64,000 nucleotides of DNA. It comes from a virus. This document shows, one piece after another, positions 33,867 to 58,864 of this stretch. The notes beneath the pieces were generated by a model that had not been told where the DNA came from, made no database searches, and worked only from the letters and a program-made list of their open reading frames with translations. The stretch covers positions 46,329 to 110,328 of IMG/VR virus record IMGVR_UViG_3300025929_000012; one strand, given 5' to 3'. Each line of letters opens with the position of its first letter. Within the stretch, counting starts at the first letter, position 1. The position numbers and the translations under genes are program-made.

Positions 33867-34344
33867 TCAGCGCGCCCTCAAGGCGGGCGATCTCATCCTC
33901 GATCAGCTCGGCGGTGATCACCTCAACACGGGACCGGGACGGGGCGTACAGGCCGGTGAGCTTCGCCTCATGGTCATCGAAGCGGAGCAGCCGGTCCAGG
34001 GCATGCAGGACAGGGGCGTCATCAAGGAGCGGGTCACCGGTCACCGGGTGCAAGGCGACCTGCCCGGACGCGGTGGTGGCGTAATGCTTGGAGGTCGCTA
34101 CCCGCCAGGCGAGCCGCCGGTAATCCTGCAGCCGGTCGAGCATCACCTGCAGCGCTTCCGGCCCTGCCAGCGTGTCAGCGGCGGTGGTGCGGGCGTGGCG
34201 GCGGATCGCGTCCCCCACCGACTGCGGTGACCGGTAGCCGAGCTGCTTCGCTATCTGCCGGTAGGACAGGCCCCGCCGGTACAGGTCAGCGGACTGCGCG
34301 TCACGCTCCATCACAGCCAGGGAAGGGCGCTGAGGCATGGCCAC
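33832..34344 (-). CDS. Terminase small subunit-like HTH protein
   Basis: RRGLSYRQIAKQLGY...AKLTGLYAP; directly upstream of terL. Confidence 0.75.
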   Translation of the reverse strand: MAMPQRPSLAVMERDAQSADLYRRGLSYRQIAKQLGYRSPQSVGDAIRRHARTTAADTLAGPEALQVMLDRLQDYRRLAWRVATSKHYATTASGQVALHPVTGDPLLDDAPVLHALDRLLRFDDHEAKLTGLYAPSRSRVEVITAELIEDEIARLEGALSANDPAGTGTA

Positions 34345-34388
34345 CCCCTCGGGCTTTTGTCCAGCGTTCAGTGTCCGGTGGACAGGGG

Positions 34389-35660
34389 TCAGGCGAAGGA
34401 GACGGGGACGGTAGTGCCGTCAGGCTGGACATGCTCGGGCTTGATCCCCGTCTGGCGTTCCCAGCGTGCCGCGATCACGTCGCAATACGCTGGCTCCATC
34501 TCAAGCAGCGCCGCCGTGCGGCCGGTGTTGTGAGCGGCGATGAGCGTGGACCCGGAGCCGGCGAAGGCGTCAAGGACCACCGTGCGCTCGCCCTTGGGGT
34601 CGATCACCGAGAAGGCCCACTCGGCGAGCGCCACGGGCTTCTGCGTCGGATGCACGCGCTTACCGCGCTCGGAGGCCCGCAGCATCCCGTTCCACATGTG
34701 GCGCAGCAGGCGAACGGCCCCGGGGTGGTTCGTCCAAGCGAGCTCACAGTCGGCGAAGTCACCGTTTGTGTCCTTGTCCCAGACCAGCCAGCAGGAGGAG
34801 TCGGACAGGCCGGCGGAGGCGGCGTAGTGATTGCCGCCCCACCAGACGTGCAGGGCGGTGGGGTACTCGGTAGACAGGAGGCGGAACGCGTCGGCAGCGG
34901 TCTCTGTCGTGCTATCGCCAGCCACCGGCCTGTACTGGGTCCAGGTGACGTTCCCGAAGCCGGGCCGGTAGCGCCCCCCTGATGCCGGATCGTAGCCACC
35001 GACGTTGCCGGTTTCCCTCACGATGCCGATCCCGTACGGCGGGTCGGTGTAGACGATCCCGACCGTTCCCAGCCCTTCAGTGACCCGTTTGAGGTCATCC
35101 GGGCTGGTGGCGTCACCGCACAAAAGCCGGTGCGGGCCGAGCAAGTACAGGTCACCTAGCGCGCTGACCGGTTCCGCTGGCGGTTCCGGCACGTCATCCG
35201 GGTCACCGCTGCCACCAGTGCTGCCCGGTTCGTCCCTGCCGAGCAGGTCCGCGAGGTCATCCAGGTCATGGACGCCCCACCCGGTGCCGTCATAGTCGCC
35301 GTCCAGCGCCAGCAGCAGCTCAGCGAGCGCCCGGTCGTCATACCGCTCACCCGTCTCCGGGTCCGGCAGTTCCCCGGTGCGGTTGTCCGCTAGGTTCACG
35401 CGGCGGGCTTCGTCGTCGGTGCAGGTGATGACCTCGCACCGTGCCGTCTCATGCCCTTCGGCCTCGAGCGCGTCGGCGGTGTGGTTCCCGGCCAGGATCA
35501 CGAGGCCGGTGCCGGTGTCGCGGACGACGATGGCCCGGTACTGGCCGAGGCGGGCGACGCTCTTGCGGATCTCGGGGACGTTGCCGCGCCGGGCGTTGCC
35601 GGGGAAGCGGGTGAGCTCAGCGATCGGGACCTCCCGGATCCCCTCGGGCTGGATGGCCAC
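34389..35660 (-). CDS. ParB-N plus DNA amino-methyltransferase (N4C/N6A)
   Basis: ILAGNHT/LADNR (ParB); HRLLCGDAT, YTDPPYG, HPTQKPV, VLDAFAGSGSTL. Confidence 0.9.
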   Translation of the reverse strand: MAIQPEGIREVPIAELTRFPGNARRGNVPEIRKSVARLGQYRAIVVRDTGTGLVILAGNHTADALEAEGHETARCEVITCTDDEARRVNLADNRTGELPDPETGERYDDRALAELLLALDGDYDGTGWGVHDLDDLADLLGRDEPGSTGGSGDPDDVPEPPAEPVSALGDLYLLGPHRLLCGDATSPDDLKRVTEGLGTVGIVYTDPPYGIGIVRETGNVGGYDPASGGRYRPGFGNVTWTQYRPVAGDSTTETAADAFRLLSTEYPTALHVWWGGNHYAASAGLSDSSCWLVWDKDTNGDFADCELAWTNHPGAVRLLRHMWNGMLRASERGKRVHPTQKPVALAEWAFSVIDPKGERTVVLDAFAGSGSTLIAAHNTGRTAALLEMEPAYCDVIAARWERQTGIKPEHVQPDGTTVPVSFA

Positions 35661-35686
35661 GCGCCTGCCCCGCCCGGCTCTCTTGG

Positions 35687-36049
35687 CTAGTTCGAAGTTC
35701 CCGCGGCCGGGGGTGCCGGGGGCGCGAGGTCAGTCACCGACGACACGGAGGAGTCCAGGGACGCGGCGGTGCCCTGCGCGGCGGCGACGGCAGCGTCCAG
35801 GGCAGACGTGTCCACCGAGGCGGGGAGGGCGGCGAGGGCGGCCTTGATCGCGTCGATGTCGGTCCCCAGCTGGGCGACGTTCGCGGCGACGTCGCCGGTG
35901 AGGGCGGTCAGGGCCTGCGTGGCCAGGTCGATCGACTGCTGCTGCTCGCTCACGGTATCCAGCTTTCTCTCAAGGGCGGTCAGGGACTTGCGGATGGCTT
36001 GCAGTTCCGGGGAGTGGTCGCAGGGCCGGCGTCCCCATTCGGGCTCCAT
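35687..36049 (-). CDS. Coiled-coil hypothetical protein
   Basis: Heptad-like, Ala-rich. Confidence 0.6.
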   Translation of the reverse strand: MEPEWGRRPCDHSPELQAIRKSLTALERKLDTVSEQQQSIDLATQALTALTGDVAANVAQLGTDIDAIKAALAALPASVDTSALDAAVAAAQGTAASLDSSVSSVTDLAPPAPPAAGTSN

Positions 36050-36312
36050 CAGGCTGCCTCCGCCCGCCGTGGGCGGCCTCGTAGCTGCCGGGGGTCGGTG
36101 CCCGATGCGGTGATGCCGTGCTCCCGGACCAGCCTCTCAGCGGCCCTGAGCGCTTCGGGGGTGTGGAGCGGCCTGCCGCGCTCGTCAAGGCCCTGGGTGG
36201 CGAGCCAGCCGCGCCAGCGCCAGGACCGGATCGTGGCGGGGCTGACGCCGATGTACCGGGCGGCCTGGACGGTGCCGAGCATGCCGTCATCACGGGTCGG
36301 GACCACGGTCAC
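36049..36312 (-). CDS. MerR-like HTH protein
   Basis: LGTVQAARYIGVSPATIRSWRWRGWL. Confidence 0.75.
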   Translation of the reverse strand: MTVVPTRDDGMLGTVQAARYIGVSPATIRSWRWRGWLATQGLDERGRPLHTPEALRAAERLVREHGITASGTDPRQLRGRPRRAEAA

Positions 36313-36589
36313 CGCCCTGTTACATGCGAAATGCCCCCGTACGCGAGGTGCGCAGGGGACAGTTGTTCTAGTGGTGGCTAGTGTTGCACCTTGCTCGTGA
36401 GCTGGCAAGTTACGGCGGCTGACGGCGTGGCCGCCTAACCACTCGTCATCGTCGCCCCAGCCACTAGACGGGCACCAGCAGTCCCGGCACAGGCACAGGC
36501 AATCGTCCCCGCATGAGCAGTCCGCGACCTCGTTGCCGTCCACGTCGGTGCGCCCGCTGTAGGTGTCGGCGGGGCAGCATTGCAGCGGC

Positions 36590-37717
36590 TCAGGCGGCGG
36601 CACGGCCCCGGCCCCCGCAACATGAGCACGACGCCCAGGAACATTCAGGATGCCGGTCCAGGTCGGGGCGCATCTCGCAGCGGCGGCAGGTGAGCAGCCC
36701 CGACCCCCGCACCCACGCCGCGTACATCACGGCCCACGCGGTCAATTCCGGGCGGGTCATCTCGTCCCCGCACTCCGCGCACCGTGTCCACCGTGGCGGC
36801 GGCTGGGCCGGGTCCGGTGGCGGCTGCTCCAGCACCGTGAGGGCTGACATGGCCTCGCACGACCGGCACGGCATCCCGTCGAGGACCTCCGCGGACGCGG
36901 GGACCTGCCCGGTCAGCCGGCGGGCATGCCAGTCCAGGGCGAGGATCTCCGCGCCGGCGTGGACGGCGTTCCGGCGGGTCAGCACCTTCACCCACCCGTC
37001 GCCGGCGGAGACGATCTCCAGGTCGCCTAGCTCCGCCTCAGCCTCGGCGGGGACCGGCCCGGACGGCACGGCTTCCGGCACGGGGCCGGGGTCGTGGTCA
37101 CAGAACCCCGCCGCCTGGCCGTCGCACGCCCACCACCAGCCCGACACCGGGGAACGGGTCACCGTCCGCCCGCACCTCCGGCACGCCCCCTGCGCCCGGT
37201 TCAGCGGGGCCGTCGCCTCGGGGAGGTCGTAGGCGCGGGTCGTCCACCCGTCCGGCAGGGCCATCAGCGGGCCGGGATGGCGGGCCAGGACGTTGCAGTC
37301 CTCCCGCACCCTGCCCGGGGTGCCCGGGGGATGCCGGGGCGGGGACAGGCGCAGGCCCGGGGTATCGCGGACCCGGGCGGCCCACCCGGCGAGGACCGCG
37401 GACGCCTCCCGGGCCAGTGCTTCGGCGGGGGGGCTGACCAGGATCCGGGGTCCCGGAGGTACCCGGACCTTCCCCGTAGCCCGCGCGAGGGCGGCGGTAC
37501 CGGAGGCTAGCAGGGAATACAGCGGGGGGAGCTCCGTCAGGCAGGTGACGATCTTTGACGTGCAGGCCGGGCAGTACGGCTGCCAGGTGAGGGCCGGATG
37601 CCATGCGCCTTCGGCGTCGCGGGTCGACGCGGCGCACCAGTCACCTCTCGAGCACGAGCGCTGCTCGTCATCGGTTACCGCCGGAACCTGGGCCTGGACT
37701 GCCTGCCGGGGAGCCAT
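36590..37717 (-). CDS. Cys-rich protein typical of the region upstream of phage packaging genes
   Basis: CPAC...L.ELP.LY, PCRSC, CAECG motifs. Confidence 0.7.
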   Translation of the reverse strand: MAPRQAVQAQVPAVTDDEQRSCSRGDWCAASTRDAEGAWHPALTWQPYCPACTSKIVTCLTELPPLYSLLASGTAALARATGKVRVPPGPRILVSPPAEALAREASAVLAGWAARVRDTPGLRLSPPRHPPGTPGRVREDCNVLARHPGPLMALPDGWTTRAYDLPEATAPLNRAQGACRRCGRTVTRSPVSGWWWACDGQAAGFCDHDPGPVPEAVPSGPVPAEAEAELGDLEIVSAGDGWVKVLTRRNAVHAGAEILALDWHARRLTGQVPASAEVLDGMPCRSCEAMSALTVLEQPPPDPAQPPPRWTRCAECGDEMTRPELTAWAVMYAAWVRGSGLLTCRRCEMRPDLDRHPECSWASCSCCGGRGRAAA

Positions 37718-37864: not shown

Positions 37865-38338
37865 CTAGTACCAGGTGTAGATCTCAGAGGGAACGGGCGG
37901 GCCAAACAGCCAGATCGCCGCGTATTGCCAGATGAGCAGCGCGTTAGGCAGCTCCATGACAGTCCCGGCGCGGGTAGCCTCTTCGTGGATCAGGTGCCGG
38001 GCGACGGTCAGCCGGTCGGCGGTCTCTCCGTCGGCGACCGGGCGTCCGAGCGAGAAGCCCTCTTCCGGGCCTGCCGCCCAGTCGGGCGCAATGGCGATCC
38101 CGCTCTGATGCAGGCCGATGGTGGTCATAATGTCGATGAGCAGGCGCAGGTCTTCCTCGGCGCGCGTGAAGTAATCACTGAAGACCGGGCTGTCCAGGGT
38201 CCCGCCGGGGGTGTCCTCGCCGAAGGTCTCGGGCTGCGCTATGTGGGGTATCGCAAGCAGGCCGAGGGGACGGGGATAGCCCGTGCTGGCGGACGCCTCG
38301 GCGGGCATGGGCTGGGTGGTTGTCTTTTTCCTGAACAT
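37865..38338 (-). CDS. Hypothetical protein
   Basis: TGATG coupling. Confidence 0.6.
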   Translation of the reverse strand: MFRKKTTTQPMPAEASASTGYPRPLGLLAIPHIAQPETFGEDTPGGTLDSPVFSDYFTRAEEDLRLLIDIMTTIGLHQSGIAIAPDWAAGPEEGFSLGRPVADGETADRLTVARHLIHEEATRAGTVMELPNALLIWQYAAIWLFGPPVPSEIYTWY

Positions 38339-38631
38339 CAGCGTCCCCGCACGCTGTACAGGACGTCGATCCACTCGGGCCTCTCAGGGTCGAACGGGTC
38401 CTCTTCGAGCGTCACCGGGTACCCGAGTTTGCCTCCCGCCCACGCGGCGAGCTCGGCGGGAGCGAGCCCGCGCGGGCCATCCAGCGCGGCGTACGGCGGG
38501 CAGTAGAACTGCCTGTCGTAGTCGCCGCGGGTGAGCAGCGTCCAGGTACCCGGGCGGCCCGCGAGCCGGTCCCGGAGGCGGGGCTTATCCGGCTGGCTGT
38601 AGAACAGCACGTGATCGTCGTCATCCGGCAT
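38338..38631 (-). CDS. Hypothetical protein
   Basis: AAAGGA SD + ATG 38631. Confidence 0.6.
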   Translation of the reverse strand: MPDDDDHVLFYSQPDKPRLRDRLAGRPGTWTLLTRGDYDRQFYCPPYAALDGPRGLAPAELAAWAGGKLGYPVTLEEDPFDPERPEWIDVLYSVRGR

Positions 38632-38648: not shown

Positions 38649-39161
38649 CTAGTACCAGTTGGGATTGGTGTGCTTCTCGTGCCACCATGCGCCGCACGGG
38701 TTGGCATAGGTGGCCGCGATGTAGTTCAGGCCCCACCTGATCTCCCAGTACGCGGACCCGCTGTTGGCCTGCCGCGCCTGGGCGTCGGTGAGGCCGAAGC
38801 CGCCGTACTCGTTTCCGAGGGTGCCGCCCCGGCCGGGCCCGCCGTGGGTCAGCGCCTGGGGGATGCCGAGCGCCCCCGACTGAGGGTTGGCGACCGACGC
38901 AGACCAGGTGTGCGCGGATTCCTCGTCCCATAGCAGGTCAAGGCAGTGCTGCTGCCTGGCCCCCCACCCGAGGGCGGCGGCCATCTCGTTGGCGAGCCGC
39001 TCGTTGGCGGGCATGCTGCTGTCCCGCACGGCCAGCACGGTCCCGCCCGAGAGTGCGTTACCCCCGGGGTGACGGTGGGCGGCGGCGTGGCTGGCCGGCA
39101 TGTACCCGGCGGCGGCGAGTACGGCGAACGTGCCCAGCGTGGCCCTGGTGCGCAGTTTCAT
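38649..39161 (-). CDS. Secreted lytic-transglycosylase-like protein
   Basis: Signal peptide; CLDLLWDEES..W...ANPQSGALGIPQAL...IRWGLNYI..TY..PC.AW. Confidence 0.8.
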   Translation of the reverse strand: MKLRTRATLGTFAVLAAAGYMPASHAAAHRHPGGNALSGGTVLAVRDSSMPANERLANEMAAALGWGARQQHCLDLLWDEESAHTWSASVANPQSGALGIPQALTHGGPGRGGTLGNEYGGFGLTDAQARQANSGSAYWEIRWGLNYIAATYANPCGAWWHEKHTNPNWY

Positions 39162-39275
39162 CGCTTGCCCTAGAGGTGGCCGGTGGCCCCGTAGGCGACT
39201 GCCATGATCACGGCAACGCCTACGGCCCAGGCGAGGATGAACAAGACGAGGTATTTCACGGGGGGTTTCTCCTTT

Positions 39276-39785
39276 TCAGGCCCGCGGGCGGGCGTAGCCG
39301 ACGACTTTCCCAGGGCCAGTGCCGCTCAGCGCGGAATCGACCCCGAACGGGTAGGCGCCGATCGGAGTGCCGGGGGCGTACGCCTGGATCATCCGGTGAG
39401 CGCCGGTCACGAGGCCGACATGCCCCGGCGCCTTGCGGGTGCCGTCGGCCCCGGCGAAGAACACCAGGTCCCCGGGCTGCGGGCTGGTGACGTGCGGCAG
39501 TTCCGCCCACTGCTCCTGTGACGTGCGGGGGATGGTGACGCCCGCGCGGGCATACGCCTCCATGACCAGGCCAGAGCAGTCGAACGAGTCCGGGCCGGTG
39601 CCGCCCCACAGGTAAGGCTTGCCGAGCTGGGCCTCGGCGTAGGCGAGGACCCGCGCGGTGACCCGGTCCCCGGCAGGGGCGCCGTGCCGGGCGGCGCGCA
39701 GGTGCGCCGCCGTCGCGGGGGCGTGTGAGGCGACCGCGAGGACGCCGCCGGCGGCGACCACGCCCAGGAACGCGCGGCGCCTCAC
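39276..39785 (-). CDS. NlpC/P60 peptidoglycan endopeptidase
   Basis: GKPYLWGGTGPDSFDCSGL...PGDLVFF...HVG; RRRAFL Tat-like leader. Confidence 0.9.
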   Translation of the reverse strand: MRRRAFLGVVAAGGVLAVASHAPATAAHLRAARHGAPAGDRVTARVLAYAEAQLGKPYLWGGTGPDSFDCSGLVMEAYARAGVTIPRTSQEQWAELPHVTSPQPGDLVFFAGADGTRKAPGHVGLVTGAHRMIQAYAPGTPIGAYPFGVDSALSGTGPGKVVGYARPRA

Positions 39786-40204
39786 CAGCGCCGTCCCCTC
39801 GAAGGGCCGGCGACCGCGGCGTGCAGGTCACGGGCGGCGCGCAGGATGTCATCGGGGCTGGCGTCCTGGTGCTCGCACGTCATCCACAGCGCCGTCTTCC
39901 GCAGGTGGTAGTCAGCGTCGCCGCCGGCTTCGCTGAGCCATGCCCGCCACTCTTCGGCGACGCCGTACACGCGGGCGCGGCCGTGGAACAGCGCGTTGCC
40001 GCGAGCCTCCAGGCGCAGGTAGCGGGCGGCGAGCGCGATCGTTACGGCCTGCGCCGCGAACAGCCGGTCAGCGACTGGCAGTTCCGGGTCAAGGCCGGTG
40101 ACGCCCTTCCACCAGGGGTCGGCGTGCACGCAGGCCACGTGCGGCCCGGGGGGCGGCGGGATGGTCAACTGGTCCTCCGCTGTGTACGGGATAAGAGTGG
40201 TCAC
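39782..40204 (-). CDS. Hypothetical protein
   Basis: GTGA coupling. Confidence 0.6.
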
Positions 40205-42186
40205 TGGGCTGCCTCCTGGCCGCTGATGAGCGCCAGCACGGCGCCCAGGTCTTCGGGGGCCTTGAGCACGTCGCGGGCCTTGGATCCCTCACTCGGCCCG
40301 ACGATGCCCCGGCTTTCCAGCAGGTCCATCAGCCGCCCGGCCTTCGCGAAGCCGACGCGGAGCTTGCGCTGGAGCATTGACGTGGAGCCGAACTGGGTGG
40401 TGATGATCAGCTCGGCGGCCTGGGCGAGGAGGTCCCGCTCGTCGTCGTCCACGATGCCCGCAGATCCCCCGCCGGCGTCCCCGTCCGGGCCGCCGCCGGC
40501 GGGCGGGGCCACGGTGGCGTAGGCGACCGGGCCGCAAGCCTTCACCTGGGCGACGACCCGGGCGATCTCCTCCTCGGACACGAACGCGTTCTGCAGCCGC
40601 ACCGGGCGGGACGCGCCCATCGGCAGCCACAGGCAGTCACCCTGGCCGGTCAGCTTCTCCGCGCCCGGCTGGTCCAGGATCACCCTGGAGTCAGTCAGCG
40701 ACGATGTCGCGAACGCCAGCCGCGACGGTACGTTCGCCTTGATCAGCCCCGTGACGACGTCCACCGACGGCCGCTGGGTGGCGAGCACCAGGTGGATCCC
40801 GGCAGCGCGGGCGAGCTGGGTGATCCGCACGATGGATTCCTCGACGTCACGGGGGGCGACCATCATCAGGTCGGCGAGCTCGTCGACGATAGCCACCAGG
40901 TAGGGGTAGGGCTCATACACCCGCTGCGAGCCGGGCGGCGGGACCAGCTTCCCGGCCCGCACCGCCTTGTTGAAGTCGTCCACGTGCCGGTAGCCCGAGG
41001 CCGCGAGGTCGTCGTAGCGGCGGTCCATCTCCCCGACGACCCACTCCAGGGCCTCGGCCGCCTTCTTCGGGCTGGTGATGACCGGGGTGATCAGGTGCGG
41101 CACGCCTTCGTAGACCGAGAACTCGACCCGCTTCGGGTCGATGAGGATCATCCGCACCTCCTCCAGGGTGGTGCGGGTCAGCAGGCCCGTGATCAGCCCG
41201 TTGAGGCAAACAGATTTCCCGCTCCCGGTCGCGCCGGCGATGATCACGTGCGGCATCTTCGCGAGGTTCGCCAGGACGATGCGGCCTTCCACGTCCTTGC
41301 CCAGGCCGACGGTCATCGGGTGATGGTCGGCGACCGCCTGCGGGGAACGCAGGACGTCACCGAGCATCACCGTCTCCCGGTCCTCGTTCCTGCGGGGCAC
41401 GTGGACGCCGACGGCCTTCTCGCCGGGCACGGGGGCCTGGACCATGACATCGCCCGGAGTCTTCGCCTCGTAGGCGAAGTTCTTTGCCAGCGCGGCGATC
41501 TTCTCCACCTTCACCGCGCCAGTGAGGGTCAGGTCATAGCGGATGACCTGCGGGCCGCTGACCCTGCCGGTGACGGCGGCGGGAATTTCGAACTGGGCAA
41601 GGACGGACTGCAGCGCCTTCGCGGCCGGGTCGTCCTCCAGGCTGGGATGGGGGCCGACCTGGGGTTCTGGGAGGCTGGCGAGAACAGCCGGGCCTGGCGG
41701 CGCGTACGCGGTGCCTGCCGCCGCGGGCACCGTAACGTCATCAGGGCCGGCGGGCTCGCTGGCGATGACCTGCCCGGCGAGTACCCCGGCGGCAGGCCGG
41801 GCGGCCTCGGTGACAGCAGCGGGCGGCTGGCCGGGCACGGGGTGGAAGGCCCGCCAGGAGCAGGACGCGGCGGTGAAGCCGCCGCCCGCGACCCAGGCGG
41901 CCTGCATGACCCCGCCGGCGCCGACCGGGGTGATGAGCACCGCGACAGTCAGCCACGCCGCTGCCGCCACCGCCACCATGATCACGGCCCGGCCGTCCGC
42001 GCGGGATGCCCTGGTGGCGATCATGAAGATGGTGACGGCAGCGACGGCGACGGCGGCGGCAGTGAGGCGCCCGGCGGGATGGCGGGCGGCCAGGTGGGCG
42101 ATGATCGCGTAGGCGTCCCCGGCGGCGAGCAGCAGCCACGGGGCCGCTGCTCGCCTGCCCGGCATCCCGGCTGCTGGGATGGTCAC
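40201..42186 (-). CDS. FtsK/SpoIIIE DNA translocase with N-terminal TMs and gamma domain
   Basis: [36 protein letters not shown]; gamma [22 protein letters not shown]; likely GTG start overlapping upstream stop. Confidence 0.95.
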
Positions 42187-42878
42187 GAGGCCTCCTTCGC
42201 CGGGCGCGGAGGGGCTGGCAGCCGGCCGGGACCGGGCTGGCCGCCGGCGGCCTGGGTGCCCGGGTGGGCGCGGCGCGGCGCGGCGGCCTTGCCGGCCTTG
42301 CGGTAGCCGCGGACGAACACGAGCGCGAGCACGACCAGGAAGGCCACGGCGATGATGACCACCGGGTGCCCCCCCGCCGAATGAGCGGCGGCGGCCGGGT
42401 GACGGTGACCGCCGGCGGGTGCCGTGAAGGCGGTGCCGCTGATGACGCCGGCGGCGGCGTGCCGGGCGCTGGCCAGCCCCTGACCGGTGCTGCGGGTGAT
42501 CTGGTGCCACCCGCCGATCACCAGGGCCAGCGCGGCGGCGAAGGTGACGGACACCGCGATCGTCCCGTGGTGATGATGGGCTTTACCCCGGAAGGCGCCC
42601 AGGAACGCGAAGACCCCGGTGACCGCCAGCACCGCCAGCAGGACCACCAGCCCGGCCCCGGCCCCGGTGACCTGCCACAGCACCGCGAGGCTCGGCGCGA
42701 ACGCGATCATGCCGCAGAACACGGCGACCGCGAAGATGACCGCGGCGGCCCGCTCGCACGCAGCCGTCCTCTTGCCCTTCGCCTCCGCCCCGCCGCCTTT
42801 CACGTGGTTCCGCATCGTGAAGACGAGGACCCCGGCCACGGTGGCGAGCACCGCGACGGCGGCCATTGGCCCGTTCAT
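42183..42878 (-). CDS. Multi-TM membrane protein (Spd/transfer-like)
   Basis: About 5 hydrophobic segments; coupled to the FtsK gene. Confidence 0.7.
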
Positions 42879-42906
42879 GCTTTCCCCTTTCCTTTTCTCT
42901 TTGGCC

Positions 42907-43539
42907 TCATCCGAAGATGAGGATGATGAGGGCTAGCACCCCGGTAATGGCGAGCACCGTGAAAATGCGCGCGAACCGGTCACCGGCCCAGTCAATCCGG
43001 GTGCCCGCGAACACCAGCGCCTCGCCGGCGATGATGAGCGCTTTCCCGGTGAGCTTCGCCGGGGCGGTAACGGCCAGGTGGCCGGCGACGAATGCCCGCC
43101 CGGCCCACGGGGCGCCGATCTCCTCCAGGACCGGGTGGGCGGTGACGTGCCGCCAGTGCTGGCGCATCGTCTCCGTGCTGGGGCTGGCGAGCTCGGCGAG
43201 GAGGCCGCCGGGGCCGCCGCCGACCGCCTCGCTGCCGGCCAGGGTCCCCAGGTGCGCCCGCAGGCGGAGGCCGGGCGCGGAGCGGGCCTCCCGGGCGGCG
43301 GGCCCGCCGGGCCCTGTTACCCACTCGCTGGTACCGAGCCAGTCAAGCGACCGCGGGTCGTTTCCCCCGCCGGGGTGATCGCCGTTACCCGGCGGGGTAA
43401 CGCCGGAGGTGACAGCGGGGGTAACGGGCGGGGTAACGCCGGGGGAAACATCCGGGGTAACAGTGCCGGGGGAAACGGCGTAGTCCGGGTCGGCCCAGTA
43501 GTCAACTGTGCCGCCGGTGTCATAGGGCATGGCGGTCAT
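42907..43539 (-). CDS. Membrane-anchored protein with VTP repeats
   Basis: AGGAGG SD; C-terminal TM. Confidence 0.7.
   Translation of the reverse strand: MTAMPYDTGGTVDYWADPDYAVSPGTVTPDVSPGVTPPVTPAVTSGVTPPGNGDHPGGGNDPRSLDWLGTSEWVTGPGGPAAREARSAPGLRLRAHLGTLAGSEAVGGGPGGLLAELASPSTETMRQHWRHVTAHPVLEEIGAPWAGRAFVAGHLAVTAPAKLTGKALIIAGEALVFAGTRIDWAGDRFARIFTVLAITGVLALIILIFG
43384..43476 (+). repeat. GGG(T/A)AAC array 1, 12-bp period
   Basis: Copies ending 43401, 43413 (variant), 43425, 43437, 43449, 43461, 43476, plus one inverted copy at 43384. Confidence 0.85.
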
Positions 43540-44039
43540 CGGGGGTCCTCCTGTCCGGGTCGCCGGGCCAGCGCCCGGAACGTCGCGGTGACCGGGGCGA
43601 GCGGCGCCCACCCGGCCGGGTTGAGCTTCCGGGGCTCCCGGAACCACGGGTCGGGCTGCTCGCCGCGCTCGACCGCGGCGGCCAGCGCGTCGATCACGTG
43701 GACCGTCGCCCAGCACCAGGCGGCGGCGTAGTGCCAGTTACGGCGGCTGGCAGGACGAAACACGCTGGTCAGGTACTCCACGGCGCGGGCCAGGGCCATG
43801 AACGGGTCAGTCTCCGCGTTGACCCTCGCGACGCCGGGAGCCCCCCGCCGGCCCCTTCCCTGCAATACCACTGCCGGGGAAGGGGTATAATCACGCGCCG
43901 GCGACGCATGCCTGCCCGTCGGGCGAGGCCACGGCCCCCCTTCGAGGGCACCCGGGCCCACGGGGGAGGGGCGTTCGGGGCGGCCCCGCGGGCCCGGCCC
44001 GGTAACGTTCTGGTCACGGATCTCTCGCATGCCGGTCAC
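43536..44039 (-). CDS. Hypothetical protein
   Basis: GTGA/ATGA coupling. Confidence 0.6.
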   Translation of the reverse strand: MTGMREIRDQNVTGPGPRGRPERPSPVGPGALEGGPWPRPTGRHASPARDYTPSPAVVLQGRGRRGAPGVARVNAETDPFMALARAVEYLTSVFRPASRRNWHYAAAWCWATVHVIDALAAAVERGEQPDPWFREPRKLNPAGWAPLAPVTATFRALARRPGQEDPR

Positions 44040-44935
44040 TCCCCGGCCGCTGACTGCCCGGCAGCGCGGGCTTCCTTGACTCGCTTCACCAGCGGCGCGA
44101 CGCGCTTCGGGGTGCCGCCGTACTCGTCCATGAAGGCGCGGACGGTGAGGTCCAGGCCGGCCCGCTCGCGCTCATCGGCGAGCTTCATCGCCAGGGCCCA
44201 CATCTCGTCGTCGGCCATGGGGGGCTTGCGCATCAGGTCCGTGACGGTCGCCAGCGGGCCCGTCTCGTCCTCCGGCGGCTCGATGGCGAGGGGGGTGGCA
44301 AGGGGGAGCGCGGCCTGTCCGGCGTTACCCTCCGGGAGGCCCTGCGCGTTACCCGCGAGGCCCCCGGACGCGTTACCCCAGCCGTTACCCTCCCTGTTAC
44401 CCCCGGCGTTACCCTGGCTGTTACCCCGGCTGTTACCCGGCCTGGAGAACCGGGCCGCGAGCGCCTCACGCTCCGCCTCAAGCCGCCGCGCCTCCTGCCG
44501 GGCCTCCCACCGGGCGAGGTCCGCAGACTGGGATGCCGAGTACATGAGGACCCCGACTGCCGTGAGGGCCGCCAGGTCCAGGCCGTAGGACGCGACGCCC
44601 GCCGGCACGGTGCCCATCCCCGGCGTGAGGACCTTGATGCCGGACGACGCGGACGCGAACATCAGGGCCGCGGCGATCCCGCCCACCCATATCTTCAGGG
44701 TCCAGTGGAAATTCACGTGCGCGGCCACGTGGGACAGGATCGCCACCAGCAGCGGCACCGCGAGGCCGACTGTCCAGCCGATTAGCGCGGGCATGTGCCC
44801 GAGCTTCACGTGCTGGTAAATGTTCAGCTCAACCGAAATGGTCAGCGCGATGACCGTGCCCGCCTCGCACGCGTACGCCACGTCCTTGCGGAGCGTCTTC
44901 GGACGCGGGTCGTGTAGCGCCTTAATGTCACTCAA
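44036..44935 (-). CDS. SpdA/DUF2637-like membrane protein
   Basis: 4 TMs, coiled coil, GN-repeat linker, C-terminal helical domain. Confidence 0.65.
   Translation of the reverse strand: MSDIKALHDPRPKTLRKDVAYACEAGTVIALTISVELNIYQHVKLGHMPALIGWTVGLAVPLLVAILSHVAAHVNFHWTLKIWVGGIAAALMFASASSGIKVLTPGMGTVPAGVASYGLDLAALTAVGVLMYSASQSADLARWEARQEARRLEAEREALAARFSRPGNSRGNSQGNAGGNREGNGWGNASGGLAGNAQGLPEGNAGQAALPLATPLAIEPPEDETGPLATVTDLMRKPPMADDEMWALAMKLADERERAGLDLTVRAFMDEYGGTPKRVAPLVKRVKEARAAGQSAAGE
44324..44438 (-). repeat. GGGTAAC array 2, eight perfect copies
   Basis: GTTACCC on + strand at 44324, 44348, 44372, 44384, 44396, 44408, 44420, 44432. Confidence 0.9.
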
Positions 44936-45087
44936 GGCCGTTTCCTTTTCTTCCGGGGGGCCTAGGGGGAAATCGGGGATTAGTCAATCTCAATCGCGGG
45001 CATGGTGCGGGGCCTTTCCCGCAGGCGCGGCAGGCGGCCTTCCCTCGCGGCCTGCCGCGCCCTGACGGGGAGGTGTCCCAAGGGGAC

Positions 45088-45246
45088 TCAGGCCACCGCC
45101 TCGCGGCGGCGGTGGCGGACGGCCACGGTGATGAACAAGGCGGACATCACCACGAGGGCGACGAACCCGGCGGCGGCGCTATGCATCAGGTCGCCGATGA
45201 AAGCGGCTCCAACGCCGGTGATGACCGCGCTGACGAGGATGCGCAT
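45088..45246 (-). CDS. Small hydrophobic protein (52 aa)
   Basis: AAGGAG SD; MRILVSAVITGVGAAFIG... Confidence 0.6.
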   Translation of the reverse strand: MRILVSAVITGVGAAFIGDLMHSAAAGFVALVVMSALFITVAVRHRRREAVA

Positions 45247-45314
45247 GATAGGTGCTCCTTCCGAGAGCTGACTTGTGCTGTTTCCTTGCGTGACTGCCTG
45301 GCCGGGCGGCCAGG

Positions 45315-45548
45315 TCAGGACTTGTGGCCCCGGGTCCGCCTCGCCCAGCCAGTGAGGGTGAGGATGACGGCCAGGATGATCACCACGGCGGCGATAGAGC
45401 CGGCGTGGGTCGCGGACCCGGCGGGATCCGGGTGGCTGGTGAACGCGGAGATGAACGCGTGGATCGCGGCCGGGGACTCGCGGACGGCGGAGAGCACGTC
45501 ACCCGCGTAGTGGGTGAGGTGGGCTTGCCAGGGAGCCGGGCGGGCCAT
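45315..45548 (-). CDS. Small membrane protein
   Basis: C-terminal TM; TGATG coupling. Confidence 0.55.
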   Translation of the reverse strand: MARPAPWQAHLTHYAGDVLSAVRESPAAIHAFISAFTSHPDPAGSATHAGSIAAVVIILAVILTLTGWARRTRGHKS

Positions 45549-45730
45549 CAGTGACGCCTCAGCCGTATGAACGCGACCACGAGCAAGATGAGCAGGGCGA
45601 GTAGCAGCCACCAGGCCGAAGGACCGGCATGATGGCGGGCGGCGACCGCGAGGGCGACGCCGGCGAAGGACTTGATCACCAGGGGGCTTCCTTCCGGGGG
45701 GTCAGGCGGCGCGGGGACGGCGGCGTTCAC
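45548..45730 (-). CDS. Small membrane protein
   Basis: Two hydrophobic segments. Confidence 0.55.
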   Translation of the reverse strand: MNAAVPAPPDPPEGSPLVIKSFAGVALAVAARHHAGPSAWWLLLALLILLVVAFIRLRRH

Positions 45731-46077
45731 GCTGCACGCTCCCGGGTGCGGGGACGGGCCTCGGGGGCGGTTGCAGTGCGGGCACGGTCTAGCCTGATCC
45801 GCTCGCGTTCCGGCGCGGACTTGCCGCCGTACACGCCGTGCGGGTCACCGATCCCGTACTCAAGGCAGGGAGCCTTCACCGGGCAGGTGGCGCACACCCT
45901 CTTCGCGTACGCGACGGAGCCGCCCTTTTCCGGGTAGAAGAGGTCTGGGTCGACGGTCGCGCACAGCGCCGCCTCGGTCCAGTGGGGAGGACGGGGAAGC
46001 ACTGGCGGATCATCGGGAGGCGGGAGGGCGGGCGCCTTGGCGGGCCAGTGCCTCGCGGTCCTGGTGCGGGTGCTCAC
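45727..46077 (-). CDS. whiB: WhiB-family transcription factor
   Basis: W...ALC...DPDLFYP...AKRVCATCPVKAPCL...GVYGG. Confidence 0.9.
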   Translation of the reverse strand: MSTRTRTARHWPAKAPALPPPDDPPVLPRPPHWTEAALCATVDPDLFYPEKGGSVAYAKRVCATCPVKAPCLEYGIGDPHGVYGGKSAPERERIRLDRARTATAPEARPRTRERAA

Positions 46078-46337
46078 GACGCCTCCTTCTCGCTGCCGGG
46101 CCGGGTGTTGACGGTCAGCACGGCGATCGCGAGGGTCACGTATGTGGCGGCGAGCGTCAGCCACAGCGCGTGGCGCCCGTGGCCCGCGAGGATGAGCGCG
46201 AGTTCCACGACGGCAGCCGGGATGCCCCACAGGGCGACCCGGAGGGCCTGCGCCGTGACACGGCGGGACCGCACTGGGCCACCGGAGACCGTGATCATGT
46301 ACACGGGCTCAGGGAACGGGATCACGGGGAGCCTCAT
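46074..46337 (-). CDS. Small membrane protein
   Basis: Two TMs; coupled. Confidence 0.55.
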   Translation of the reverse strand: MRLPVIPFPEPVYMITVSGGPVRSRRVTAQALRVALWGIPAAVVELALILAGHGRHALWLTLAATYVTLAIAVLTVNTRPGSEKEAS

Positions 46338-46633
46338 GATTCCGCCTCCGTCCGGTCGCTTGCGCACTCCGGGCACCGGCCGCGGCCAGTGGCATCCCAG
46401 GTGACCGGGTCATAGCAGCGGGTGCACCCGAGCCACCAGCCGCCATCGACAGCCGGGATTGCGAGGCCGAGCACCTGCCCGCAGGGATGAGGGCCTTCGC
46501 TGTCGATGACCAGGAGGCACCCGTCACTGGCGGGGGTCAGGTACAGGCTGGGCCTGCGGGGGATCCGCAGGGCGGACAGCACGCCGGCTTCCATCTCCGG
46601 GGAAACCCGCGCGGGGGACAGGACGGCGGTCAT
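46334..46633 (-). CDS. Cys-rich hypothetical protein
   Basis: CTRC...CPEC; coupled. Confidence 0.55.
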   Translation of the reverse strand: MTAVLSPARVSPEMEAGVLSALRIPRRPSLYLTPASDGCLLVIDSEGPHPCGQVLGLAIPAVDGGWWLGCTRCYDPVTWDATGRGRCPECASDRTEAES

Positions 46634-46944
46634 GACGACTCCTCCCCTGCCGGGATGACCCGCTCCAGGCACACGTAGGAGTCCCCGGCATGCCAGAAGA
46701 TCAGGTAGTCGCCGAACCGGTCCCAGTAGCCTTGCCCGGCCATCGGGGTGGCGGGCCTGTCCTCAACCGGGCCTGTCCCCCTGTCGCGCTCGCCGGCGAG
46801 GAACCTCGCCACCTCAGTGACGCCCAGCTGGCCGTACTCGCTGATGTGCCGCAGGTACCAGCGTGCGTAGTCGTGCTCCAGGTGCGCGACATGCTGGTAG
46901 CGGTCACCCGGCACCGGGGACCATCCGCTCTTGTGCCCGGTCAC
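46630..46944 (-). CDS. Hypothetical protein
   Basis: GTGA/ATGA coupling. Confidence 0.55.
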   Translation of the reverse strand: MTGHKSGWSPVPGDRYQHVAHLEHDYARWYLRHISEYGQLGVTEVARFLAGERDRGTGPVEDRPATPMAGQGYWDRFGDYLIFWHAGDSYVCLERVIPAGEESS

Positions 46945-47384
46945 GCGGTCACCTGCTCTCGTGCCTGGTCCCACGCAGCGGCCAGGACGACCCGGAGCGG
47001 CGGTGAGCAAGGCAGCCCGCCCGCGTGCCCGCAGGCGTCAAGGAGGAGGTCCCCGGCAGTGCCCGGGTCGCCGTCAGCGGCAGTGAGGAGGGCGAGCGAC
47101 GCCGCGTTCAGCGCATGCCACAGGCCCGCCCGCCACGGCGCATCGGCGTTCGACGGCCTGGAGGCGGCGAGGACCAGGCCGAGGGCGTGGACGACCTCAG
47201 GCGCGGCGGTGACCCCGGAGGCGGCGTCACGGGCTGCCCCCCATGCGGCCCGCGCCCGGTGAGGCCTGCCCGAGCCTGCCTCGTCGACCGCGACAGCGCA
47301 CAGGTCAAGGGCGTCGTACAAGGCGAACAGCGCCTCCGGCGGCGGGCCCTCATGGCCGCACCCCGGGGCGCAGGGCGCGGTCAT
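46941..47384 (-). CDS. Hypothetical protein
   Basis: ATGA overlap with 47381-47578. Confidence 0.5.
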   Translation of the reverse strand: MTAPCAPGCGHEGPPPEALFALYDALDLCAVAVDEAGSGRPHRARAAWGAARDAASGVTAAPEVVHALGLVLAASRPSNADAPWRAGLWHALNAASLALLTAADGDPGTAGDLLLDACGHAGGLPCSPPLRVVLAAAWDQAREQVTA

Positions 47385-47578
47385 GACACGGCCTGCAGGT
47401 GCCGCCGCTTCCCCGCAGGGCGCGGGAAAATGCGGGCCTCGGTGTCGGCGCACCCCTGCTCGTAGGCGGCTGCGGCGATCTGCCCGTGCAGTTCCCCGGC
47501 GCGCAAGGCCCGCAGGAACTCCCGCTGCTGCTCGGTCAGTTCCGGGGCCGGGGCGTCGCCGGGTGATAGTGTGTCCAT
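47381..47578 (-). CDS. Hypothetical protein
   Basis: GAAAGG SD; ends RHLQAVS. Confidence 0.55.
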   Translation of the reverse strand: MDTLSPGDAPAPELTEQQREFLRALRAGELHGQIAAAAYEQGCADTEARIFPRPAGKRRHLQAVS

Positions 47579-48546
47579 CAGTCGTGAACCTTTCAGTGGG
47601 GGAATGACTTACGGCGGGTCCCGGCGTGGCAGCGTCACGGGGCCCGCTTTCATTGGCGGGGCTGTTACCGGTGGTACGGGCACCCCGCGCCGACGTTGGC
47701 GCACAGGATGCAGTGGTCGCGGTCGGGTCCGTCTTCGCGCATGACAGCGCTCCTTCACTCGCCCGGGGCGAGCAGCCAGGGCACGGCAGGCCAGCCCACT
47801 TCGGGGACCCGCAGTTCAGGCAGACCCCGGTCTGGTCAAGGGCGTCCGGGACGGCTGCGGTCACGCGGGTGACAGGCTGCATCGGATGCCCGCACGTCGG
47901 GCACGCGCCCGGCGCCGAGGACATGTTCCCGTGGCAGGCGTAAGCGGGGGCGGCGGCCGGAGGGTAAGGGATGAAGGGGGTGCCGTCGGGGAGCGCCCCC
48001 GGCAGCGGCGGCAGTGCCGGGAGCCGCACCGCGCCCCGCTTGTCCGGCGGCTGGCTGGCCATCTTGGCGTACTGGCGCAGGACGATCTCAGCGACCCTGC
48101 ACGACGGGCACGGGTACCCGGCCTCGATGACGTGCCGCCAAGCCAGGCAGCACTCGTGAACCGGGCCGTCGCCGTCAGCGCGCCACGACGGGCGGGCGCA
48201 GATGCGGCACGGGGCCGCTTCCAGTACAGCGCTGGTCCGGTTCAGGTTCTGCGGCGGCACCGGGGTGTACGCCATGCCGGCCGGCCGTGGCGGCGCGCAG
48301 GCGGCGCACAGCCGGCCACCGGGGTACAGGCCCGCCGGGGACCCGCCGCACGTGCTGCACGGCGCGGTCATCACGCAGCCGCCTTCACAGCCGGGGCGGT
48401 CATCGTGACCTCCGGGGCGTCCATCTGATGGGTCGCGCCGTCTGCCGGGCAGATCCCCCGGGCACCGCCACCTACCGGGGCCAGCTCACGATCCGGGTGG
48501 ACCGGGCAGGCGACGGCGGCGCGGATGCGGAGAGCGGAGGTGGTCA

Positions 48547-48819
48547 TCAGGCCACCGCCTCGGGGGCTGCGTTACGGGTCGCCCACTCGGCTGCGAACGC
48601 TTCAACATCCACGTTGCGGCCAGAGCAGATCTCGCCGATCAGGGCAAGCACGAACGGCCGGTAGAGGTCGATCTTGCGGCCGAACCTGCGACCGGGGAAC
48701 TGGCCGGCGTTGAAGCGCCGGTAGACCGTGAGCGGGCTGACCTTCAGGAGTCCCGCCGTCTCCCTGACGGAGATGTACGTGGACTCCTGTTCGCCCGCTT
48801 GTTTCCCGAAGCTCTGCAC
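48547..48819 (-). CDS. Excisionase-like HTH protein
   Basis: YISVRETAGLLKVSPLTVYRRFNAGQFPGRRFG. Confidence 0.8.
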   Translation of the reverse strand: MQSFGKQAGEQESTYISVRETAGLLKVSPLTVYRRFNAGQFPGRRFGRKIDLYRPFVLALIGEICSGRNVDVEAFAAEWATRNAAPEAVA

Positions 48820-48838
48820 ACTCCGAAGTTAACTCATC

Positions 48839-48877
48839 GTATCGCATAATGCAAGCATTGCCAGAGATATGCGATAC
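48839..48877. promoter_or_regulatory. Inverted-repeat operator between divergent operons
   Basis: GTATCGCATA...TATGCGATAC with inner AATGC-AA-GCATT; AT-rich. Confidence 0.65.
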
Positions 48878-49009
48878 TGACGGTGCCAGGTTCCGCACCC
48901 CGGGTGGGCGCGTACCCCGGCTGACCGCACGTCAGCCGGGGTACGTTGCTCGCAGCCTCGCAATTTGGGAGCATGGAAGCGGCAATGCGGAACCAAGGAG
49001 GTACCAGCC

Positions 49010-56070: not shown

Positions 56071-56262
56071 CCCGATGACCTGCGCTTTTGCACTTTCGCC
56101 GTCGGCGGGGCGCGAATGGCCGTTGCGCCCTCCTTGCTGCCGCGCGTAGCGTCCCCTTCCATCGAACGGAGGCGGGCAGCCTCCGGGCCGCTACGCCGGC
56201 AAGGGGGAAGGGATCCCGGGGAACCGCGCCCCATGGGGTCTCGCCCGGCCGCAGGGAGGGTG

Positions 56263-56718
56263 ATGGTGATGGGGGAGGCAGCTACGCGGGCTGCCAGCCG
56301 GCGTAAGTCAGCCGCGCCGGACGGGTACGACCAGGTTGTCCGGCGGGAGGAATTCGAGGAGGCCCACCCGGCCGCGCATATCCGGTGTGACGGGCGGGAC
56401 TGGCGCGCGCAGTGGTCTCTCGGCGGGCCCCCGCTGCGGTCCCGGCCCCACTGGCAGCTGAACGGTCTTCTGGATGAGCTGGACCGCCTCGCCGCCGTCG
56501 ACGCCGAACGGCGGGCGATCATGGGCGACTTCCCCGGCTGGCACTGCTACGTCACCCGCCGCGGCCCGATGGAGTGGTGGCGGGCTTTTCCCCTCGGCGA
56601 TGGCGTGCAGGCGCCCCCGGAGGTGATCGCGGCGACCCCGGCGGGGCTGCGGACCGTGATCGCCGCGGCGGCGTGGTCCCGGTGGCGGCTGATCGTCCCG
56701 GCATGGGCGGCGGCGTGA
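56263..56718 (+). CDS. Hypothetical protein
   Basis: GGGAGG SD; FPGWHC...A.TP.GL. Confidence 0.55.
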   Translation: MVMGEAATRAASRRKSAAPDGYDQVVRREEFEEAHPAAHIRCDGRDWRAQWSLGGPPLRSRPHWQLNGLLDELDRLAAVDAERRAIMGDFPGWHCYVTRRGPMEWWRAFPLGDGVQAPPEVIAATPAGLRTVIAAAAWSRWRLIVPAWAAA

Positions 56719-58124: not shown

Positions 58125-58202
58125 GTCCGCAGCGTAACCGGTTAACGGCACTCGCAACATGCGTAACACCAGGTTAACCCTTTAACACCACCGGGGGACC
58201 GG

Positions 58203-58691: not shown

Positions 58692-58829
58692 CGATGCAAC
58701 ATAGCACACGGGGCCTTTGAGCGCACGCACGCGGGGTTCCCGCTGGTCACGGTACCCGCCGGGTGTGCGCCTGCGCAACGGGACACGCAGGCCGAGGGGT
58801 GCCGATTGACAAATCGCTGGCCACGGGCG

Positions 58830-58858: not shown

Positions 58859-58864
58859 GAGTGC

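Follow-up and report, generated by a model that had tools for sequence, protein, structure and literature searches.

A membrane-anchored FtsK module with facing GGGTAAC arrays beside the packaging genes of a temperate actinophage: a candidate apparatus for moving phage DNA between cells

Could a tailed phage carry, next to its packaging genes, an apparatus that would pass its double-stranded DNA from one hyphal compartment to the next in the manner of Streptomyces plasmids? The question is raised by the last 64 kb (bases 46329-110328; hereafter the window, to which coordinates refer unless the genome is named) of the 110,328-bp IMG/VR record IMGVR_UViG_3300025929_000012 (genome G000), a metagenome-derived record of class 'linear' with a CheckV completeness of 100%. 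On the minus strand, from 48819 downward, a module of regulators, membrane proteins, an FtsK translocase and secreted wall hydrolases is followed by a DNA methylase, a terS-like helix-turn-helix (HTH) protein, terL, a Mu-type portal, MuF and the virion genes. An earlier note on this DNA proposed a phage that may also spread by hyphal conjugation, or a fusion of a phage with an actinomycete integrative and conjugative element (AICE).

A complete virion gene set and a membrane pump of the FtsK superfamily with membrane partners thus reside on one replicon, and we tentatively read the module as a plasmid-like DNA transfer apparatus. Gene calls were based on third-position GC bias and transmembrane (TM) segments on a simple hydropathy scan. 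The Pfam, NCBIfam and PHROG profile libraries were searched, defence systems were sought via PADLOC, and relatives were drawn from eighty viral contigs with a related terL, of which the closest complete one is the sister phage G004.

The FtsK translocase and its partners

The translocase gene (40201-42186, minus strand) encodes a membrane-anchored protein of 661 aa in which an Ala-rich N-terminus with at least two TM segments and a linker precede the alpha, beta and gamma domains (Pfam FtsK_alpha, 1e-14; FtsK_SpoIIIE, 3e-65; FtsK_gamma, 3e-23). The Walker A (GATGSGKS), Walker B (VDELAD) and TQRPS motifs are intact. With the NCBIfam models, the protein scored 384 bits for FtsK and 78.9 bits for plasmid_TraB (NF041214, cut-off 800); the whole-protein FtsK score is far under the equivalog cut-off of 1566, and PRK10263 (1.4e-114) spans the C-terminal 470 residues. 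With FtsK from chromosomes and plasmids of Nonomuraea, Streptomyces, Streptosporangium and Micromonospora, the motor shares 60-69% identity, and the winged-helix core of the gamma domain is identical to that of cellular FtsK.

The N-terminus has another character. Neither the cellular-type N-terminal 4-TM divisome-targeting domain nor the long linker was found in the phage protein, which has 661 aa compared with 930-960 aa in cellular FtsK. Its first ~185 residues were matched by only eight proteins in 5.8 billion clusters, all of 592-781 aa. In a small tree with thin taxon sampling, the proteins sharing this N-terminus form a clade among cellular FtsKs (support 0.99) and the G004 FtsK groups weakly with Streptomyces FtsK. 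Judged by its domains and motor, the translocase is a housekeeping-type FtsK that appears to derive from cellular FtsK and to have been placed on a new membrane anchor.

Directly downstream, p140 (140 aa, 39782-40204, minus strand) is a soluble, lineage-specific partner of FtsK that is coupled on both sides by 4-base overlaps. Its AlphaFold model is helical with low confidence (pLDDT 61), and a search of the ESM Atlas with p140 was uninformative. A p140 profile search gave nothing in viral contigs and one 2.6-kb metagenome contig (L100), on which FtsK is directly followed by p140; the family has 13 relatives in all. Relatives of p140, of the 4-TM protein p299 and of the FtsK N-terminus share contigs of matching sizes (17,505, 5,110, 10,184, 64,846 and 4,735,474 bases), and because members of the three families sit on contigs of identical sizes, this suggests that the families are linked.

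Upstream of FtsK lie p231 (42183-42878, minus strand), a 231-aa membrane protein with five predicted TM segments; p211 (42907-43542, minus strand), 211 aa, with a VTP-repeat N-terminal region and a C-terminal membrane anchor; an 87-aa soluble protein (43539-43799, minus strand), recognised by third-position GC frame analysis and sequence inspection, which has no PHROG family; and p299 (44036-44935, minus strand), 299 aa with about four TM segments. No Pfam, NCBIfam or PHROG match was found for p231, p211 or p299. The 'SpdA-like' protein of the earlier note found no backing here, since neither p299 nor p211 matched these libraries, with no SpdA-specific model being compared. SpdA proteins have a conserved N-terminal motif of 38 residues and 12-bp palindromic sps repeats that are read as SRDD/E (PMC4170104), and no SRDD/E repeats were seen in the module translations.

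Two hydrolases follow p140. A secreted NlpC/P60 peptidoglycan endopeptidase (39276-39785, minus strand; Pfam NLPC_P60, 2e-21) has a twin-arginine-type signal (RRRAFLG), retains the catalytic Cys (DCSG) and His (GHVG), and partially matches the NCBIfam RipA/B/C/D models. The second (38649-39161, minus strand) is a secreted transglycosylase-like protein with a C-terminal-type domain of aggregation-promoting factors (NCBIfam AggPromo_Cterm, 41.4 bits, cut-off 40) and a match to PHROG 12661 'transglycosylase' (2.8e-13). Because a separate endolysin with GH25 and PG_binding domains is encoded elsewhere in the genome (genome 29885-30946, outside the window), these two enzymes are not the main lysin, and a role of the pair as the phage endolysin was ruled out.

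Four-base start/stop overlaps join the 87-aa protein to p211 (ATGA) and run from p231 through FtsK and p140 to NlpC/P60; reading frames are intact across the module, and genes are unbroken over both of its borders. The run that the earlier note described as co-oriented and largely coupled, comprising HTH, WhiB, small membrane, multi-TM, FtsK, NlpC/P60 and transglycosylase genes leading into the terminase region, was borne out by the profile and TM scans and by the overlaps at several junctions, with a weak match for the HTH protein.

Facing arrays and the four-segment membrane protein

The motif GGGTAAC is concentrated upstream of ftsK: 14 of the 18 copies in the window lie within 43316-44438, when about 3 would be expected for the window as a whole. 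In array A (44324-44438, minus strand), eight perfect copies spaced 12 or 24 bp apart lie within p299 on its coding strand. Array B (43384-43461, plus strand), inside p211 and antisense to the genes, has four perfect copies, together with degenerate copies and one inverted copy at 43384. The two arrays are convergent, ~860 bp apart and 1.2-2.2 kb upstream of ftsK. The shorter GTAAC is clustered likewise, with 17 of its 63 copies in the genome falling inside 1.4 kb.

Codon choice in the arrays is unusual. Array A is read as Gly-Asn; all eight of these Gly residues are encoded by GGT, which makes up 6.9% of Gly codons in the whole genome, and G is the last base of every codon before them. The reverse complement of array B is read as Val-Thr-Pro and uses GTT in four of five VT repeats (GTT is 6.9% of Val codons genome-wide). 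In G004, GTAAC(G) clusters occur at the same two places (16 of 73 genome copies inside 1.4 kb), where they lie in unrelated proteins, in other frames and on both strands, and use the rare Val codons GTA and GTT. Because rare codons are used and G004 preserves the core motif although it is read there in different frames and on either strand, codon and frame usage indicates that the arrays are under selection at the level of the DNA and not only of the peptide. Mere peptide repeats, as in gp24 of phage VWB, were rejected as an explanation for this phage, since the codons are rare, the motif is oriented oppositely in the two genes and its frame differs in G004.

Between the two arrays, in a gap of ~240 bp separating p299 from the next gene, a hairpin read from the sequence (CCCCTTCCC ... 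GGGAAGGGG; 43851-43890, minus strand) lies beside AT-rich TGATTATA. A consensus promoter and terminator scan was uninformative.

Comparable dense arrays were detected on other actinomycete elements that bear FtsK. The provirus locus L004 (8193-9006) carries convergent GGGAACT arrays, of which the second occupies the gap separating a 4-TM gene from FtsK; a viral fragment (L006, 2392-2591) has GGGTAC inside a 4-TM gene that lies between FtsK and a homologue of the gene at 36590-37717, which opens the packaging operon in G000; and a Streptomyces linear plasmid (L091, 16603-17211) has GCGGACAAC in both orientations inside a DUF2637 gene. The motifs in these three are element-specific, 6-9 bp long, spaced by ~12 bp and partly on both strands. 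Known clt sites are composed of multiple 5-9-bp direct and/or inverted repeats (PMC3583192, PMC4447253), with G(C/A)AAC in pIJ101, TGACACC in pWTY27 and 8-bp motifs in pSVH1 (PMC3583192), and a plasmid sps site is located within the spdA coding sequence (PMC4170104). Because known clt sites are sets of short repeats and the sps site lies inside spdA, the arrays are, by analogy, a credible clt-like candidate site.

We also considered whether the arrays are host-type FtsK-orienting polar sequences (KOPS) read by the gamma domain, and rejected this. In a 2.8-Mb Streptomyces replicon, GGGTAACG occurs 14 times forward and 8 times in reverse (control, 14/18), and is thus neither over-represented nor skewed. 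A point in its favour is that, in the whole G000 genome, GGTAAC outside the arrays is found 12 times on the minus strand and once on the plus strand, irrespective of gene strand. No genome-wide polarity of the motif was found in G004, which also counters this reading, as does a gamma core that is constant while the motifs differ.

The protein that carries array A consists of an N-terminal domain of ~4 TM segments, a coiled/low-complexity linker with (GNxx)n repeats and a conserved C-terminal domain. The p299 family has 21 relatives (48-89% identity), and GN at a period of four residues is kept in all 16 p299 relatives, with intervening residues that vary. The positional counterpart of p299 in G004 is a DUF2637 protein of the SpdB2 family (1.3e-16), a family that also matches VWB gp24 (1e-35) and Gilgamesh gp79. 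p299, not detectably DUF2637 itself, is a positional and topological analogue only of SpdB2/DUF2637 proteins. By tblastn, the G004 DUF2637 protein matches 232 plasmids, of which 225 are from Streptomyces; one plasmid homologue is directly upstream of a type IV coupling protein, and another lies on a linear plasmid in the same orientation as a full-length FtsK. SpdB2 homologues are present in phiC31 and VWB and have been proposed to help spread phage DNA (PMC4447253).

Related phages and the remaining genes

The sister phage G004 (103.5 kb, direct terminal repeats, terL 79% identical) shares the junction of module and packaging genes. Its FtsK (59% identical, including the N-terminus) and p140 lie upstream of the same DNA-binding protein, methylase, terS, terL, portal and MuF, so that the linkage of this FtsK to this terL, which the earlier note had asked to be sought elsewhere, is present in a second genome. 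The order in G004 is HTH, WhiB, five small TM proteins, the DUF2637 4-TM protein, a small open reading frame (ORF), a VT-repeat protein, a 5-TM protein, FtsK, p140 and a secreted protein. The 87-aa protein thereby corresponds to a 101-aa ORF, p211 to a VT-repeat protein of 191 aa with C-terminal TM segments, and p231 to a 150-aa 5-TM protein directly upstream of FtsK. By tblastn of G000 against G004, most of the upstream proteins, including the small TM proteins, have no detectable similarity to their counterparts.

Two complete distant relatives (G005 and G007, terL ~60%) are without FtsK, and a close relative, L007 (a 13-kb fragment, terL 79%), is without the module. In its place (3312-5883) L007 has a cassette comprising a ParA-family ATPase (PDB Soj/ParA matches, 3e-8), a neighbouring 281-aa protein and a toxin-antitoxin-like pair. 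The cassette is divergent from the packaging operon, whose first gene is a homologue of that at 36590-37717, and no ParA homologue of the L007 type was detectable in the phage genome. This position thus seems to be one at which related phages exchange lifestyle cassettes.

A search for att-like direct repeats flanking the module found none, and its interpretation as an independent insertion was rejected. Because synteny is kept in G004, lineage-specific families sit on shared contigs and flanking att-like repeats are absent, the module is an old but dispensable 'lifestyle' cassette intrinsic to the lineage, and neither a recent AICE insertion nor a chimera. The earlier note had named as refuting evidence a module bounded by its own att repeats and absent from related phages, or a chimeric contig; the absence was observed, in the distant relatives and in one close relative, and att repeats, an independent insertion and a chimera were not.

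The carrier is a temperate, integrating tailed phage of ~110 kb, as indicated by three features outside the window: a tyrosine integrase of 480 aa (genome 21184-22626, minus strand), a DUF3987 primase/helicase-like protein and the GH25 and PG_binding endolysin. The earlier note was correct that the window has no integrase, the gene being 25 kb before its start and ~67 kb from the module, and no AICE-type Rep was found, in line with its statement that no RepSA or RepAM was seen in the window. The integrase is a few kb from the DUF3987 protein (genome 20216-26518), between the early genes and the lysis/tail block. Genome G+C is ~70% and that of the module is the same as in the remaining genome. 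terL shares ~50% identity with its counterparts in Streptomyces phage TurkishDelight and Actinoplanes phage phiAsp2. The host is taken to be a high-GC actinomycete, probably a mycelial one. Among species-representative genomes, terL matched three contigs of metagenome-assembled genomes (MAGs) only, and a search with the p140 profile through 401 genomes from the order to which the matched Streptosporangiaceae MAG belongs gave nothing convincing.

The remaining module genes are mostly regulators and small membrane proteins. The leftward operon is headed by a 90-aa DNA-binding protein of the HTH_17 (MerR/excisionase) type (48547-48819, minus strand; Pfam 5e-5, 23.9 bits, below the cut-off of 27), adjoining a divergent regulatory region (48819-48965); a homologue, 34% identical, heads a similar module in provirus locus L004. 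The label 'Xis-like' from the earlier note is valid for this protein at the family level only, judging by this profile match, with the integrase ~67 kb distant. A WhiB-family regulator (45727-46230, minus strand; Pfam Whib, 1.9e-16 over residues 84-144; true start probably internal) has a homologue at the equivalent position in G004, and four small proteins of 52-100 aa with 1-2 predicted TM segments each are encoded at 45088-46376 (minus strand). A 477-aa ORF at 46941-48374 (minus strand) is Cys-rich with many CxxC pairs; its third-position GC signal shifts frame, so it may be several genes or carry frameshifts. Two small soluble proteins (97 and 169 aa; 37865-38631, minus strand) without an assigned function form the module end.

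A 147-bp gap separates the module end from the packaging operon, the start of which occupies 32166-37717 (minus strand). The operon is opened by a Cys-rich DNA-binding protein (36590-37717, minus strand), with an HTH protein and a coiled-coil protein downstream, and continues with the DNA methylase (34389-35660, minus strand), the terS-like protein (33832-34344, minus strand) and terL (32166-33866, minus strand), then the Mu-type portal and MuF. On the plus strand, from 48965, the window encodes XRE/DUF5753 regulators, a Gp3-like protein and a DnaQ-like exonuclease. Elsewhere, a 451-aa protein with a Zeta-toxin kinase domain (Pfam 3e-26; 22444-23799, minus strand) lies within the virion gene block, and the phage encodes an OmpR-type response regulator with receiver and Trans_reg_C domains (genome 37220-37876, minus strand; locus L095). 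The region 55000-59000 has 77-79% G+C and few credible ORFs, and the cumulative GC skew of the window is maximal there.

Transfer and its alternatives

If these parts act together, the set would work like the Tra/Spd apparatus of Streptomyces plasmids. At a septum or a contact between hyphae, the two secreted hydrolases would breach the wall; a channel would be formed or held by p231, p299 and the small TM proteins, and a hexamer of FtsK would drive double-stranded phage DNA, either replicated or excised, into the next compartment or hypha. The facing GGGTAAC arrays would provide a cis-acting, clt-like docking site, whichever protein may read them. By analogy with the plasmids, we consider it possible, and favour it tentatively, that the module is a plasmid-like apparatus moving the double-stranded DNA of the phage across cross-walls or hyphal contacts. 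A more far-reaching form is doubtful, namely that an integrating phage domesticated a host FtsK, which with facing arrays of a private 7-bp motif inside the coding sequence of adjacent membrane-protein genes would serve capsid-free septal spread, evolved independently of TraB systems and pZL12, and that an array-bearing 4-TM gene beside FtsK is a general, undescribed cis/trans pair of actinomycete mobile elements.

The closest likeness in layout is pZL12/phiZL12 (GQ919031), in which membrane genes, a 766-aa gene and an FtsK/SpoIIIE-like tra gene are followed by packaging and virion genes, all on one strand. Conjugal transfer of pZL12 requires the major tra gene and two neighbours, as summarised in PMC3583192, which cites Zhong et al. 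2010, J Bacteriol 192:3747. However, its proteins are unrelated to those of this phage except for a WhiB-like match and one small protein, its Tra has no tblastn match to this FtsK at E 1e-3, and no comparable GGGTAAC-type arrays were seen in it; pZL12 is a plasmid-prophage with ParAB, whereas this phage has a tyrosine integrase and no detectable L007-type ParA homologue. Because protein similarity is not detectable beyond these two matches, the shared architecture is convergent.

The TraB/clt/Spd systems of pSVH1, pIJ101, pJV1, pWTY27 and the AICEs likewise have a membrane-anchored hexameric pump of the FtsK superfamily with a C-terminal winged helix. They share with the module coupled operons of small and polytopic membrane proteins, among which the 4-TM SpdB2 is the most conserved, and they have cis sites of short repeated motifs, some within coding sequence, to which the arrays are candidate counterparts (PMC4447253, PMC3583192, PMC4170104). 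In contrast, the pump of this phage is a near-housekeeping FtsK with a host-type gamma domain, its 4-TM protein is not detectably DUF2637 and its carrier is a 110-kb phage without a plasmid or AICE Rep. The module also includes two secreted peptidoglycan hydrolases, whereas the account of pSVH1 in PMC4447253 has peptidoglycan-binding proteins and, in the part concerned with that plasmid, no mention of a transglycosylase. AICEs have int/xis genes, a RepSA, RepAM or prim-pol replication module, an FtsK-domain tra gene with spd genes, and regulators. Here, the integrase is 67 kb from the module, no Rep is beside it, att repeats do not flank it and the carrier is a tailed phage of 110 kb, unlike the compact AICE, in which modules for excision/integration, replication, conjugative transfer and regulation are combined (PMC2440964).

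Among phages, VWB gp24 and Gilgamesh gp79 are DUF2637 proteins like that of G004, as in the set of actinophage SpdB2 homologues that includes phiC31, but the VWB and Gilgamesh loci examined have this membrane protein without FtsK, and VWB gp24 has, in its 3' part, ordinary PE/PA peptide repeats confined to one strand, unlike the two-strand DNA motif here. Cluster J mycobacteriophages (LittleE gp198) have an FtsK/SpoIIIE motor that is ~50% identical over alpha/beta. Their 442-aa protein matches in the motor only, the match stopping before gamma, and its gene lies among small early genes beside Ku, with no membrane partners, hydrolases or arrays. FtsK-like genes also occur in Bacillus SPbeta-like phages and large myoviruses, and have been noted in Streptomyces phages (PMC11536984; bioRxiv 10.1101/2024.02.16.580700). 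The cellular FtsK/KOPS/dif system resembles the module in its motor and identical gamma core, and the convergent arrays recall the KOPS switch at dif; it differs in that the phage N-terminal membrane domain is another, shorter one lacking the 4-TM divisome anchor, and in that GGGTAACG has no KOPS-like excess or skew. Micromonospora and Verrucosispora plasmids with ParAB (L002 and L003, 58-73 kb) carry a full-length FtsK, with a motor ~62% identical, directly downstream of a type IV coupling protein and beside an annotated Pycsar effector; what FtsK does on plasmids seems not to have been studied. What sets this phage apart is that it integrates, that its FtsK is of the housekeeping type and accompanied by two hydrolases, that its arrays are marked at the DNA level, and that a close relative has a ParA-family gene instead.

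Several observations weigh against transfer between cells. The module hydrolases are not conserved in G004 or on metagenome contig L100, the close relative L007 lacks the module, and the ParA-family gene at that position in L007 points to segregation rather than transfer. Phages whose hosts are not mycelial, the Cluster J mycobacteriophages among them, also have soluble FtsK-like genes, and mycelial growth of the host is taken from the nearest relatives only. FtsK as a plasmid TraB was rejected, its match being below the family cut-off and much weaker than that to the FtsK model; p299 as a divergent DUF2637 protein (PF10935) was rejected as well, with no Pfam match and an hhalign probability of 0.5% against the DUF2637 alignment. 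Because the gamma core is constant while the array motif changes from one element to another, the specificity of the known clt reader finds no obvious match in this module.

The main alternative is segregation or maintenance, in which FtsK guided by or loaded at the arrays would save phage genomes that are replicating or excised, or the prophage region, from closing septa, deliver them to compartments or spores, or activate host XerCD against multimers, as an alternative to ParAB. The ParA-family ATPase, second gene and toxin-antitoxin-like pair exactly at the module position in L007, the housekeeping-type motor and gamma domain, the likeness of the convergent arrays to a polarity switch around dif, the 12:1 strand bias of GGTAAC outside the arrays and the full-length FtsK copies on actinomycete plasmids with ParAB all fit this explanation. 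It nevertheless seems rather unlikely to us: an integrating phage without a detectable L007-type ParA homologue does not need plasmid-type maintenance, secreted wall hydrolases and many membrane proteins would be superfluous, GGGTAACG is neither enriched nor skewed in the Streptomyces replicon, and the motif has no genome-wide polarity in G004. A takeover of host division, with WhiB, membrane proteins, FtsK and the RipA/Rpf-like hydrolases acting on septation or sporulation by blocking or remodelling septa or by priming the wall for lysis, and with the arrays as operators for a regulator of the phage, would leave unexplained an intact DNA pump with a full gamma domain coupled to membrane proteins, and the array-bearing 4-TM genes found alongside FtsK on plasmids. 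We regard it as unlikely, even though phage WhiB and FtsK-like genes have been reported as actinophage mimics of host networks (bioRxiv 10.1101/2024.02.16.580700; PMC11536984), PHROGs places phage FtsK in 'moron, auxiliary metabolic gene and host takeover', the models that NlpC/P60 matches best are those of mycobacterial Rip-type endopeptidases, and between the arrays lie a gap with a hairpin and a small gene, an arrangement that is frequent for operator arrays. A role as a defence system was rejected, PADLOC having given only generic ATPase matches of FtsK (SspH, mad8, HerA) and no partner-protein match.

It is improbable that the module is a remnant or hitchhiking plasmid or AICE cassette, gained by recombination with a conjugative element and having no role in the phage life cycle. 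Its absence from G005, G007 and L007, the fast evolution of its membrane proteins (no tblastn similarity between G000 and G004) and the frequent occurrence of DUF2637 and FtsK on Streptomyces plasmids are in keeping with such an origin, but the frames are intact and translationally coupled, the arrays appear from their codons to be under purifying selection, gene order is kept between phages whose FtsK is only 59% identical, the lineage-specific FtsK N-terminus, p140 and p299 families occur on contigs of the same sizes, and there are no att-like flanking repeats, AICE Rep or TraB. An assembly chimera of a phage contig with a plasmid or chromosomal contig might be suspected from an FtsK motor up to 69% identical to chromosomal FtsK in a metagenome-derived 'linear' record; it is hardly credible, since the junctions (FtsK - p140 ... 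DNA-binding protein - methylase - terS - terL) recur in G004, an independent genome with terminal redundancy, composition is uniform and genes continue across both borders. Of the two proposals in the earlier note, the phage-AICE fusion is therefore not upheld, with a true FtsK rather than TraB, no AICE-type Rep, no flanking att-like repeats, uniform GC and synteny in G004. Hyphal conjugation, its other proposal, is plausible by analogy and gains some support from the DUF2637 counterpart in G004, the array selection and the pZL12 layout.

Transfer by this module would be distinct from that of pZL12 in its recently captured housekeeping FtsK, its integrating phage and its wall hydrolases. The question is directly testable because the GGGTAAC arrays are a clean cis element that can be removed by synonymous recoding, and because the ParA-family gene at the same place in L007 offers a natural comparison. 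If phage DNA crosses septa in plasmid style, one infection could seize an entire network of hyphae, or a prophage could be passed on through contact; if true, this would change models of phage spread, plaque formation, lysogeny and gene flow in Streptomyces-like bacteria.

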